Source of the DNA: a phage
Length of the DNA stretch: 58,567 nucleotides
Reading direction: 5' to 3' (one strand)
Sequence record: PZ445423.1
Below, piece after piece: positions 48,638 through 52,964 of this stretch (position 1 is its first letter; each line of letters starts with the position of its first letter). The notes under the pieces are model-generated. The model had not been told where the DNA came from. It saw only the letters and a program-made list of their open reading frames with translations, and ran no database searches. Made by a program: the position numbers and the translations under genes.

Positions 48638-48776
48638 AAATCCTCCTAGTGAACTGGTAATGTCACTATAAAACAGCTATTAGCTATTTGCAAGAATTGT
48701 TTTAATATAGTGCTTAGTGGCGTACATAGTGGGCAAAACGTGTATAGTACGCCGTTACTGGCTTTGTAAAAGTTTG

Positions 48777-48808
48777 CCACTATAAACCACTATCCCACTA
48801 TTCACTAA
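48777..48808. repeat. three direct CCACTAT repeats plus a degenerate fourth copy
   Basis: CCACTATaaaCCACTATcCCACTATTCACTAA; copies start at 48777, 48787 and 48795. Confidence 0.6.
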
Positions 48809-48911
48809 TTTTTTATTTTTACACAGAGCAAAGTTTATAAGTTTACGGTTTTCCCCTTATTACCCCGTTTTCAAACAAAGAATTAGTAGTAGTAGTGAAA
48901 ACGTGTAAATG

Positions 48912-48933
48912 CCACTATCACTACTATACTATT
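48912..48933. repeat. second CCACTAT/CACTACTATACTAT repeat cluster
   Basis: CCACTATCACTACTATACTATT. Confidence 0.5.
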
Positions 48934-49306
48934 AATTATCTGAAAAAAGTTGGGAGTATACCCCTATAAACTTATAAACTTTCAGTCAACTAACTAAAAT
49001 AAAACTAATTAAACTAATATTAATAATAACTATAAATATATATAAAATAAGGATTTATTATTATTGTATATAGTACCTATTGGTATTATGTGATGAGTTT
49101 ATAGTCACTAAATAAACTCTATAAATTTTAATAAACCTGAACGGATGCAGATCAAAAATGAGAAGTCAAGTGCTTTTGAGGGAAATTTATTGAACTATTG
49201 TGATCGGAAGGTATATCAAGCTATAATGCGCTTAATCGCGGGATATTGGAGGAGGACTTTATTGCGCGGTTAACCGGACCAGTAGGAGGGCTGGCCCGGA
49301 AGTAGT

Positions 49307-49633
49307 TTAGAGCTGTACAGGTGTGAAGTGGGCTAATGTGTCGTCGGACATAATACCAGACAGTTTTTCGGTTACCCATTCGGACCAAATACTATCCGGT
49401 TCCTGGCGGTGCACAAACCAGATTTCGGATGTGCCTTCTTTGCGCATCGGTTGCACTTCTACAAGGAACTTGTCCTGCATAAGGCGGGTGAAGCATACGC
49501 TGGTCATTGGAACCGGCTTTTCGTCTTTATTGTAATAAGGGATTAATATTTTATTTCCGAAGTTAGCAACTTCATAAACCGTTCCTTTGCGAAGACCTCT
49601 GATGTCAGTGTAAGAGCGGATGAACGTTTTCAT
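49307..49633 (-). CDS. hypothetical protein
   Basis: 108-aa ORF with SD AGGAG. Confidence 0.45.
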   Translation of the reverse strand: MKTFIRSYTDIRGLRKGTVYEVANFGNKILIPYYNKDEKPVPMTSVCFTRLMQDKFLVEVQPMRKEGTSEIWFVHRQEPDSIWSEWVTEKLSGIMSDDTLAHFTPVQL

Positions 49634-51086: not shown

Positions 51087-51115
51087 TAGACACATGATCG
51101 GTCTAGCACTACTAT
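51087..51115 (+). promoter_or_regulatory. candidate promoter, copy 1 of a repeated element
   Basis: TAGACA, a 17-nt spacer containing CATGATCGGTCT, then TACTAT; ~48 nt upstream of the ATG at 51163. Confidence 0.4.
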
Positions 51116-51162
51116 ATACACATACCGCAAGGTGCTACAAATTAACTTAAAGGGTACACATT

Positions 51163-51452: not shown

Positions 51453-51596
51453 ATGGCACGCAAATATTCGCTTACACGCGCACAACATGCTTTATTATTG
51501 CAGGTTATGCGCATGGAGTACGAAGAGACTACATGGGCGCAAGCTATGCAGACAGGGCGCGAGTTCTACGCGCAACTAATAGCACAAAATGCCTAG
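51453..51596 (+). CDS. hypothetical small protein
   Basis: 47-aa ORF (MARKYSLTRAQHALLL...) with SD AAGGGGT; below the track's size cutoff. Confidence 0.3.
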   Translation: MARKYSLTRAQHALLLQVMRMEYEETTWAQAMQTGREFYAQLIAQNA

Positions 51597-51625
51597 ACAA
51601 CATGATCGGTCTGGTGGATACTACA
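51594..51625 (+). promoter_or_regulatory. candidate promoter, copy 2 of the repeated element
   Basis: TAGACA-a-CATGATCGGTCT (exact 12-mer shared with copy 1) then GATACT; ~30 nt upstream of the ATG at 51656. Confidence 0.35.
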
Positions 51626-51655
51626 CACATCAACCAAACAACGGGGGTAAACAAA

Positions 51656-51883
51656 ATGCGTAGTTTCAAATGTGTAAGCGTAAATGCTACTGGTAACGGT
51701 CTGTTCACGGCAGGTAATGTATATGACTTCAACATGGAAAGTTATAAAGACACAACGCTTACAGGTGTAATGTTCGGTGGCGCTCGTGTCGTTCGCTGCC
51801 ATTTAAACAAGAACACGGAAAATGAATATACCCTTATCAGTCGCTACACGGGCGAGCCGTTAGCTGTGTTCCATGCAGCTTAA
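51656..51883 (+). CDS. hypothetical small protein
   Basis: 75 aa with SD GGGGGT; same frame as the track's 198-aa ORF, whose upstream part looks non-coding. Confidence 0.4.
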   Translation: MRSFKCVSVNATGNGLFTAGNVYDFNMESYKDTTLTGVMFGGARVVRCHLNKNTENEYTLISRYTGEPLAVFHAA

Positions 51884-51960
51884 GCTATAACGCACACAGC
51901 GCCGCGCTAGCGATCTAATGTACATAGGTAATGGTAATGCATTAGCTCGGGCGAAACGGG

Positions 51961-51999
51961 CGCACAGCGTCGCGCACAGCTCGCACAGCGCACACAGAC
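51961..51999. repeat. degenerate tandem CGCACAG(C) repeats in a non-coding GC-rich stretch
   Basis: CGCACAGCGTCGCGCACAGCTCGCACAGCGCACACAGAC. Confidence 0.5.
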
Positions 52000-52317
52000 C
52001 CACGCAGGCCCAGCCGCGCAACCCGACCCATCCTTTTCCAGGTACTTGGATCGCTGGGGCGTGCCCTGTCCATCCTGATAGTAAGTCCTTGTCTAAATCT
52101 CACCTGTCACATTCCTATCCACCTACATCCATGACCCCACCTACCTTCTTTTTGAATATATTGCGCTCATCCTTTCTAAATATATGGATTTTGGTAGTAA
52201 ATTCTGAGTCGTCAACGTATAATCCGTCTTGTAGCTGCTCCATAGCTACCATCTTTAAGCGGATGCAACCAATTTCTATCAATCCACACCTGTTTTTAGA
52301 GCATCAAGGAGGTATTT

Positions 52318-52581
52318 ATGTGCGACTCCAGTACAAGCGCTTCACCCAGCACCTCCAGCAATGTGGTTACAGAGGTAAATGCAATGCGATTAGGCCCATA
52401 TCGCGGGTATTATGGTCGGGCAGCATGGAATGACGCTACTCAACGTTTTGAAGGCTGGATTATCTGTCCGGAACGTGTTAAATTTCATTCCGTAAAAGAG
52501 AAAAATATCGTTCTTAATTTTCAAAAATGTGTCACTAAATATGTAGAGGAGCAAGAAGAATGTCTTATGTGTCAGCATTAG
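52318..52581 (+). CDS. hypothetical protein
   Basis: 87-aa ORF with strong SD AAGGAGGT 7 nt before the ATG. Confidence 0.45.
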   Translation: MCDSSTSASPSTSSNVVTEVNAMRLGPYRGYYGRAAWNDATQRFEGWIICPERVKFHSVKEKNIVLNFQKCVTKYVEEQEECLMCQH

Positions 52582-52925
52582 AAGCTGCTGGATGCGAAGT
52601 ATTAGATTTTGTTGAGTTTGGTTGTTATCAGGGTGAATGGCTTGCCCTGATAAGAAAAGATGGTGTATTGGGAGTTTGCGAAGGGTCTTATGGATCATGC
52701 TCTGGTTGCGATTCATTTGAAGCTGAATTTGGCTGGCATAATGAGGAAAGTCCCGATTATCAGAAACGTCTTGCTGAATTTGGTAAAAGTTACTTACCAG
52801 CTAACAGCTTTGAAGAAATGATCGTCAAACTTCAAAAGGATATTGAGAATTATGATTGGGATGACGATTATAAATCTATGTTAGAAACTGTTCGTGACTG
52901 GCAGAAAAATATAGGACAAGTATAA
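52560..52925 (+). CDS. hypothetical Cys-containing acidic protein
   Basis: 121-aa ORF with SD AGAGGAG; contains CEGSYGSCSGCDSFE. Confidence 0.45.
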   Translation: MSYVSALEAAGCEVLDFVEFGCYQGEWLALIRKDGVLGVCEGSYGSCSGCDSFEAEFGWHNEESPDYQKRLAEFGKSYLPANSFEEMIVKLQKDIENYDWDDDYKSMLETVRDWQKNIGQV

Positions 52926-52940
52926 TTATCAATCTATAAT

Positions 52941-52964
52941 GGGCTCTACGGAGCCCTTAATTAT
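52941..52964 (+). terminator. candidate terminator/attenuator
   Basis: GGGCTC-tacg-GAGCCC hairpin followed by TTAATTAT. Confidence 0.45.

Follow-up and report, generated by a model that had tools for sequence, protein, structure and literature searches.

What function resides in a stretch between two small genes of a phage early region that itself looks devoid of genes? This question is raised by positions 51884-52317 of a 58,567-nucleotide (nt) stretch of phage DNA (sequence record PZ445423.1; its full length is hereafter the window), whose source is the genome of a Seuratvirus (Queuovirinae) phage. The gap in question spans 434 bp, from the stop codon of a plus-strand gene at 51656-51883 to the ATG of the next gene at 52318. 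We found that it is non-coding on both strands and that it constitutes the best-conserved, always-present block of the mosaic early region in Seuratvirus phages of Escherichia coli, Salmonella, and Hafnia. Based on its conservation, its strand-specific base composition, and its local hairpins, we tentatively propose, at a probability of about 0.45, that it is a cis-acting transcription-control region, in which a terminator of the Rho-utilization (rut) type ends a short rightward early operon and is followed by a promoter for the downstream gene. The element is real, conserved, and hitherto undescribed, and the kind of element is an ordinary one; a literature search turned up nothing published on the region or on transcription in Seuratvirus.

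A conserved non-coding element in a mosaic early region

The region is matched by 33 phage records, the closest being that of Escherichia phage Greed (98% identity over 51600-52562). The element is present in 18/18 aligned relatives with a majority fraction of 0.98-0.99, and the genes flanking it are mosaic. Distant copies were recovered from Salmonella phage STP-SP5, where an unannotated gap of ~400 nt occupies the equivalent position, from Hafnia phage yong3, and from the metagenome contigs L043 and L046. In the comparison with STP-SP5 the element is the longest conserved block of the early region (394 nt, 71%), with most of the flanking small genes being unshared. Its identity to STP-SP5, yong3, and L043 is 0.62-0.71, as against 0.49-0.59 at the third codon positions of the adjacent gene, and the corresponding values for L046 are 0.90-0.92 against 0.74. 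As this identity exceeds that of the third codon positions, and as the element is always present amid mosaic flanks, it is more conserved than the synonymous sites of the adjacent gene and is under selection. The conservation is blocky, with invariant single-copy blocks parted by indel-rich spacers. Searches for distant homologues, comprising pattern scans of viral, metagenome, and genome contigs and an nhmmer profile, recovered only Seuratvirus-type sequences, and none of the 5,426 E. coli genomes and 72,556 plasmids searched for a host or plasmid origin gave a match. Providencia phages with the downstream gene do not have the element; one Providencia phage, PSTCR7 (L050), has a 640-nt non-coding gap of its own at 229-873, with many AATAACA-type repeats and a sequence unrelated to the element.

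Mosaic breakpoints fall at 51884/51887, 51944, 52063, and 52562, and in CAjan, Seurat, and similar relatives homology is lost on the upstream side of the first of these. Two kinds of alleles replace parts of the element. In the type B alleles (GottfriedDienst, SA126VB, ECP2304, Skure, SHIN8, and three contigs; L011-L015, L037, L040, and L041), 257 unrelated nt stand in place of 51945-52062. This insert holds a 40-aa minus-strand open reading frame (ORF; MSRLIGPVYDCKICY...) behind a GGTGGGG Shine-Dalgarno sequence, the coding status of which is doubtful given its many non-synonymous differences and a frameshift in L041. In WildeMaa, SA80RD, and Skure a homing endonuclease gene follows the block CCCCACCTACC and displaces the promoter-like part of the element along with the first 14-22 codons of the downstream gene, substituting for the equivalent of window ~52147-52360. 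The downstream gene of these alleles is only 76-79% identical and has an internal GTG as its start, and the first half of the element is kept at 94-98% identity. The endonuclease genes, of the free-standing homing/HNH type, lie at 1510-2094 in L009 (WildeMaa), 1330-1812 in L010 (SA80RD), and 1560-2129 in L014 (Skure). As the type B and the endonuclease-bearing alleles each replace a part of the element, no single sub-part of it is indispensable. The locus is marked as a conserved non-coding anchor for the exchange of accessory genes and of a homing endonuclease.

An earlier note on this stretch, made from the letters of the sequence, had described the gap as apparently non-coding, its only long ORF lacking a Shine-Dalgarno sequence, and had listed the remnant of a lost gene among the possible explanations. 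Two ORFs had to be considered:

51918-52433, plus strand: ORF of 171 aa, not a gene; its ATG lies within a hairpin arm and no Shine-Dalgarno sequence precedes it
52115-52282, minus strand: ORF of 55 aa with no protein-coding constraint; the records of Greed, CSP1C, ECP2304, and OddieOddie give it as 43 aa

An alignment of 14 relatives shows the 171-aa ORF to be put out of frame by three insertions (31, 2, and 1 nt) and a 1-nt deletion; the 31-nt insertion, found in slur01 (L005), SeppeHuegi (L007), and L046, falls in a variable spacer after window ~52084. Codon-usage scoring of this ORF, which the note had suggested, gave a log-likelihood of -0.07 as opposed to 0.18-0.31 for the neighbouring genes, i.e., a non-coding profile. 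Its substitutions are spread over the three codon positions as 17:12:15, with 13 being synonymous and 31 non-synonymous, as against 10:3:19 in the downstream gene and 12:6:25 in the 47-aa gene at 51453, which served as controls. Purifying selection on the ORF in relatives, which the note had named among the findings that would refute its view, was looked for and not seen, and a Pfam search with its product found no match. The minus-strand ORF is interrupted by a stop in PLYYY01, by frameshifts in CAjan, KS_A8, and L039, and by stops in STP-SP5 and L043; its changes comprise 5 synonymous and 17 non-synonymous substitutions and 1 stop, distributed over codon positions as 8:9:6, and protein family searches with it found no match. 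The sole point favoring a gene here is a coding-like codon score of 0.205. On neither strand is there an ORF common to the five lineages, the same conserved nucleotides being read in differing frames, and a search for tRNA and tmRNA genes found none. The non-coding status proposed earlier is thus upheld by indels, codon score, and the flat distribution of substitutions over codon positions, and the lost-gene explanation is not supported, given the lack of a shared ORF and the conservation above the synonymous sites of the adjacent gene. The public records are in conflict at this locus: plus-strand ORFs of varied length are annotated in CAjan, Seurat, KS_A8, SeppeHuegi, and WildeMaa, the minus-strand ORF is annotated in SHIN8 as well as in the four records listed above, and slur01, PLYYY01, and STP-SP5 have neither. 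The three mutually inconsistent ORF annotations (a plus-strand ORF of 53-126 aa and minus-strand ORFs of 43-50 aa) are probably spurious.

Composition, hairpins, and promoter-like sites

The constituents of the element are as follows:

51884-51906, plus strand: left boundary and imperfect inverted repeat P1 (GCTAT..ACAGC), coinciding with a mosaic breakpoint; in STP-SP5 a perfect 7-bp GCGCTGT/ACAGCGC
51911-51949, plus strand: hairpin P2, a 12-bp stem (51911-51922/51938-51949) with a 15-nt loop bearing the conserved AGGTAATGGTAA
51952-52180, plus strand: tract of C-rich, G-poor sequence lacking translation and structure, proposed here to hold the rut region and to serve for termination; the untranslated RNA starts directly after the stop codon
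51960-51999, plus strand: degenerate CGCACAG(C) tandem repeats, with CACAG at 51963, 51975, 51984, and 51993
52022-52047, plus strand: conserved block CCCGACCCATCCTTTTCCAGGTACTT, nearly invariant in five lineages and present in a single copy in the genome
52067-52083, plus strand: conserved block TGTCCATCCTGATAGTA, kept in the type B allele too
52135-52146, plus strand: conserved block CCCCACCTACCT, kept also in the alleles bearing the homing endonuclease
52188-52215, minus strand: antisense promoter-like site P-, TTGACG, 16 nt, CAAAAT, overlapping P+; good in the window group and yong3
52195-52223, plus strand: promoter-like site P+, TAGTAA (52195-52200), 17 nt, TATAAT (52218-52223); an AT-rich tract (52147-52194) lies ahead of it
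52231-52249, plus strand: hairpin P5 (GTAGCT/AGCTAC, 7-nt loop), beginning 7 nt past the TATAAT, where the predicted P+ transcript would have its 5' end
52250-52265, plus strand: invariant motif CATCTTTAAGCGGATG of the 5' leader, identical in the window group, STP-SP5, and L043

The description of the gap as GC-rich in the earlier note holds for its first ~180 bp (51884-52062, 61%, rising to 69% in the core at 51945-52062), and not for the AT-rich remainder (52063-52317, 41%, with 34% in 52140-52230); over the gap as a whole the value is 49% as against 44.7% for the genome. The more striking compositional trait is strand asymmetry. On their sense strand the genes of this phage have more G than C (mean C-G of -3.0 per 78 nt, sd 5.7), whereas the segments 52099-52176 (C30/G5, z = 5.0) and 51963-52040 (C37/G16, z = 4.2) rank first and second genome-wide among sense-strand 78-nt segments for excess of C over G, and a C-G value of 21 is reached by no sense-strand segment outside the element. 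Every lineage, and the type B allele as well, has a C/G ratio of 1.6-2.2 that forms the local maximum of its locus, and the bias persists even where the sequence is replaced, as by the C13 tract that stands for window 52108-52134 in WildeMaa. The tract is also poorly structured: the folding energy of 121 nt is only -7.9 kcal/mol, and 191 of 200 shuffled sequences fold better than 51952-52062 does (z = +1.56). A presumptive transcript would hence present the features of a rut site, namely untranslated RNA past a stop codon (51883), at least ~80 nt of C-rich and G-poor sequence, and little structure. Intrinsic terminator prediction found none inside 51884-52317, the next on the plus strand being at 52941-52956, and no U-tract directly follows the hairpins, P2 being followed by GGGCGAAAC and P5 by CAUCUUUAAG.

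The degenerate repeats noticed earlier were recovered by Tandem Repeats Finder with periods of 12, 9, and 7 at 51960-51997. A further CACAG lies at 51895, upstream of the repeat array, and 4 of the 10 genome-wide matches to GCGCACAGC (with at most 1 mismatch) fall within a 100-bp span here; copies of GCACAGC are kept in STP-SP5, yong3, and L043. At 52054-52060, the window and most E. coli-type relatives have ggggcgt in place of the acgccct/gcgccct of SeppeHuegi, L046, STP-SP5, and L043, which looks like a 7-nt inversion (template switch). Elsewhere in the genome, the fourth most C-over-G sense-strand segment is 49238-49315 (minus-strand sense), at the end of the leftward small-gene operon and itself containing a hairpin (CCGGGCCAG..CTGGTCCGG); it may be a counterpart of the rut-like tract.

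A structured RNA was another possibility raised in the earlier note, along with a check of structure and covariation across related phages. What survives of it are two local hairpins, P2 and P5, which are supported as plus-strand RNA, most of the stretch being conspicuously unstructured. The folding energy of the gap is no better than that of shuffled sequences (z = -0.69 on the plus strand and +1.03 on the minus strand), RNAalifold of the ViennaRNA package found no consistent global structure for the whole element on either strand, and the families of Rfam 15 went unmatched, both at gathering scores across the window and at E up to 10 for 51700-52500. A long-range closing stem suggested by the minimum-free-energy fold of the window sequence (51896-51924/52041-52069) was rejected, with relatives showing 1-2 mismatches and no compensatory changes and other lineages folding otherwise. 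P2, in contrast to these, is paired in 99.2% of cells in 10 relatives, the window's own copy having one mismatch (T51914). Three of its pairs vary solely between G-C and G.U on the plus strand, i.e., they would be A.C mismatches on the minus strand, and in STP-SP5 a 10-bp helix is kept with three consecutive pairs changed on both sides. As MAFFT could not register the distant arms, covariation was assessed by a hand count and a covariance model; the model-fitted count includes two spurious window matches, and only the three double changes of STP-SP5 are counted as real. The SA80RD record annotates P2 as a terminator. The stem of P5 likewise recurs with different sequences, TGTACC/GGTACA in STP-SP5, GCGCTA/TAGCGT in L043, and ATTGA/TCAAT in yong3; two stem variants of the E. 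coli group are G.U on the plus strand and A.C on the minus strand, and the fold has z = -1.83. Taken together, the wobble variants in the E. coli group fit the plus strand in 5/5 cases (p about 0.03). P1 is ambiguous as an RNA, with the E. coli group fitting the minus strand and yong3 and L043 the plus strand.

The perfect TATAAT reported earlier was located at 52218-52223, where it forms the -10 element of P+ (6/6 match, spacing 17) behind a -35 element that matches at only 3/6; the site scores below the scan's own threshold. The -10 is invariant in all E. coli-type relatives and is TATACT in STP-SP5 and L043, always 5-7 nt before P5. The antisense site P- is poor in STP-SP5 and L043 and is lost in the homing-endonuclease alleles that retain the first half of the element. 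A candidate anti-Shine-Dalgarno interaction, the pairing of CCCCACCTACCT with the downstream AAGGAGGT, was rejected, as the duplex energies were no better than those of shuffles in all four lineages.

The gap comes after a short early operon of three small genes, and rightward promoter-like cassettes lie ~0.3-0.8 kb upstream of it. The minus-strand genes end at ~50903, and a promoter-like cassette (TAGACA-17-TACTAT, 51087-51115) opens the rightward operon and is repeated at 51594-51622 before the accessory gene. The full repeat unit, at 51087-51125 and 51594-51635, consists of TAGACA, 17 nt, TACTAT/GATACT, and then ACACACAT, each copy standing before a small plus-strand gene; the second copy has a 1-nt insertion, and STP-SP5 also has two copies. 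The genes bordering the element are:

51656-51883, plus strand: upstream accessory small gene of 75 aa with a GGGGG Shine-Dalgarno sequence and a codon score of 0.28; its stop codon adjoins the element, and many relatives lack the gene
52306-52581, plus strand: downstream gene of 87 aa (phrog_24875) together with its strong Shine-Dalgarno sequence AAGGAGGT (52306-52313); it accompanies the element always

The CSP1C record labels 52318-52581 as "RNA-binding protein Hfq" and 52560-52925 as "antitoxin HicB". Pfam gave no support for the Hfq and HicB labels, and PHROGs yielded only a weak HicB-like match (E = 0.005) for 52318-52581. Further downstream, 52921-52956 holds a pair of overlapping TATAAT promoter-like sites that lead directly into a G+C-rich hairpin (GGGCTCTACGGAGCCC) and then a T-rich tail, the same promoter-then-hairpin layout as at 52218-52249.

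Proposed cis-acting control and its rivals

Among the possibilities named in the earlier note, a regulatory leader is the best fit to a conserved and selected sequence with plus-strand hairpins, a rut-like tract, and a promoter-like site. In the mechanism that we posit, RNA made on the plus strand would fold into hairpin P2 past the last stop codon (51883). The next ~230 nt of this RNA would be untranslated, unstructured, and C-rich/G-poor with CACAGC repeats, the signature of a rut site, on which Rho might load in order to release RNA polymerase in the A/U-rich zone at about 52150-52230. The downstream gene (52318) would then depend on the sigma-70 promoter-like P+ (TAGTAA-17-TATAAT), the transcript of which would begin with hairpin P5 and the conserved leader. 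The Rho dependence, the termination zone, the use of the promoter, and any role in timing are all predictions from the sequence and its layout.

Several observations weigh against this proposal. The putative Rho dependence is deduced solely from composition, position, and lack of structure, and rut sites normally need no invariant blocks, such that CCCGACCCATCCTTTTCCAGGTACTT and TGTCCATCCTGATAGTA are unexplained by the rut model. The weak -35 element (3/6) of P+ is a further concern, as is the fact that P+ is unrecognisable in yong3; moreover, chance alone would yield a perfect TATAAT ~25 times per strand. The homing-endonuclease alleles replace both P+ and P5, so neither is indispensable, and P2 is cut at its base in the type B alleles. 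Strand assignment by wobble variants amounts to only the 5/5 cases given above, with P1 pointing the opposite way in the E. coli group. Finally, the first half of the element varies at 0.27 events/site in the E. coli group, near the synonymous rate of the neighbouring genes. Because a plain rut site does not explain the invariant blocks, these may reflect a more specific function involving a protein or RNA partner or a trans-acting RNA. As a long shot, the C-rich plus-strand RNA, capped by P2 at its 5' end and carrying the invariant single-copy blocks, might be a stable early RNA that acts in trans in a Seuratvirus-specific host takeover, for instance through titration of Rho or some other RNA-binding protein of the host, or by countering a host defence.

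Each of the rivals to a cis-acting control region is less well supported than it. We consider it unlikely that the element is the gene of a non-coding RNA that has its own function, be it a G-rich antisense RNA of ~230-290 nt, which would start from P- near 52181 and end at hairpins P2/P1, or a stable plus-strand RNA processed from the early transcript. Such an RNA would accord with the conserved hairpins in a region under selection, and the invariant single-copy blocks would suit a specific RNA partner; P-, for its part, scores 9/12 in addition to being good in the window group and yong3. However, P- has no proper -10 in STP-SP5 and reads CAAAAC in L043, and it is lost in the homing-endonuclease alleles even though their first half remains 94-98% identical. 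Furthermore, the wobble variants fit the plus strand and not the minus strand, the overall folding is no better than that of shuffles on either strand (minus-strand z = +0.35 and +1.03), and no Rfam family is matched even at E = 10. An element acting as DNA, such as a replication origin or a protein-binding array in which CACAGC iterons bind a phage protein, is improbable. The clustering of the repeats at 9-12 bp spacing, the palindromes TAATGCATTA and TGAC-N2-GTCA, the adjoining AT-rich tract (34% GC) that could serve for unwinding, and the face-to-face overlap of the promoter-like sites would all be consistent with it; nevertheless, the repeat core (51945-52062) is swapped for unrelated sequence in the type B alleles and the AT-rich promoter part is replaced in the homing-endonuclease alleles, so that neither half is indispensable. 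Stems that change sequence yet keep pairing and that allow G.U on one strand speak for RNA rather than a sequence-specific DNA site. A better candidate for an origin or regulatory hub than the gap is found at 48638-49306, a non-coding AT-rich region of ~670 nt between minus-strand genes, in which several promoter-like sites accompany ATAGTGG-type repeats of both orientations.

Decay of coding sequence, with the minus-strand ORF at 52115-52282 (43-55 aa) real or recently lost in the E. coli group and the GC-rich part being the remnant of another gene, appears quite improbable. Most E. coli-type relatives have that ORF uninterrupted, several records annotate it, and its codon score is coding-like; the type B alleles have their own 40-aa minus-strand ORF with a Shine-Dalgarno sequence. 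This is countered by its substitutions (5 synonymous, 17 non-synonymous, 1 stop) and flat codon-position profile, by the stops and frameshifts listed above, by the lack of a protein family match, and by conserved nucleotides that fall in differing frames among the lineages. The region is also more conserved than nearby synonymous sites, and its composition is extreme even for the antisense strand of a gene, with 0.01% of segments reaching its value. Another rival, likewise improbable, is that the element is mainly a recombination cassette, a conserved non-coding flank that promotes the exchange of modules, as the promoter-stem-loop cassettes of T4-type phages do, with no regulatory role. The breakpoints that lie exactly at 51884/51887, 51944, 52063, and 52562, the repetition of the promoter cassette at 51087 and 51594, and the homing-endonuclease insertion site within the element all point in this direction. 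Yet recombination alone leaves unexplained the compensatory changes in the hairpins, the extreme strand-specific composition that is kept even where the sequence is replaced, and the conservation above synonymous sites in distant lineages. A role in recombination is in any case compatible with a cis-acting control region and not exclusive of it.

Relationship to known phage control elements

Clustered short direct repeats beside an AT-rich tract, with promoters nearby, recall the iteron origins of the lambda ori, P1 oriR, and P4 ori type. The repeats of the gap, in contrast, are only 7-9 nt long, degenerate, and irregularly spaced (12, 9, 9), and viable relatives have other sequence in place of their core or of the AT-rich part, which sets the gap apart from iteron origins. 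With the small and antisense RNAs of phages it shares a conserved non-coding stretch, an antisense promoter-like site, and terminal hairpins, but it matches no Rfam family, the support for its structure lies on the plus strand, and its antisense promoter-like site is not conserved. A closer likeness exists to the promoter-early stem-loop (PeSL) cassettes of T4-type phages, which Arbiol et al. are said to have described in 2010. As in these, a stem-loop comes at once after a promoter of the sigma-70 type, here a promoter-like site (P+ with P5, and TATAAT at 52935-52940 with the hairpin at 52941-52956), and the arrangement occurs at the borders of variable small early genes, coinciding with mosaic breakpoints. 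PeSLs, however, are tens of nt long and occur in many copies per genome, whereas the gap element is a single-copy 434-bp sequence, most of which is neither promoter nor stem-loop.

The layout that it most resembles in the reading favored here, that of a cis-acting control region, is the nutR-tR1 region of lambda, where a Rho-dependent terminator follows cro and the rutA and rutB sequences flank the boxB hairpin. Like it, the gap lies a few hundred nt downstream of an early promoter-like site and directly past the stop of a small early gene, and it presents in succession a hairpin, a stretch of C-rich, G-poor, unstructured, and untranslated RNA, and an A/U-rich zone before the next Shine-Dalgarno sequence. 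The differences are equally clear: there is no sequence homology; the hairpin of the gap has 12 bp and a 15-nt loop as opposed to the 5-bp boxB of lambda with its GNRA-like loop; searches of 51884-52317 for a lambda-type boxA (CGCUCUUA / GCUCUUUAACA) found none at up to 3 or up to 1 mismatches; and the products of the three upstream genes include no evident N-like arginine-rich protein. The Rho dependence of the gap is, moreover, only putative, and as a promoter-like site follows within the gap, antitermination need not be invoked. Thus, the layout resembles that of lambda cro-nutR-tR1, but, given the lack of boxA, the differing hairpin, and the absence of homology, the gap is not a member of that family. 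If our proposal is correct, the element would show where the immediate-early operon ends in Seuratvirus (Queuovirinae) phages, the transcription programme of which is as yet undescribed. It would also provide, beyond the lambdoid and T-even models, a testable case of a virulent siphophage with Rho-dependent control.

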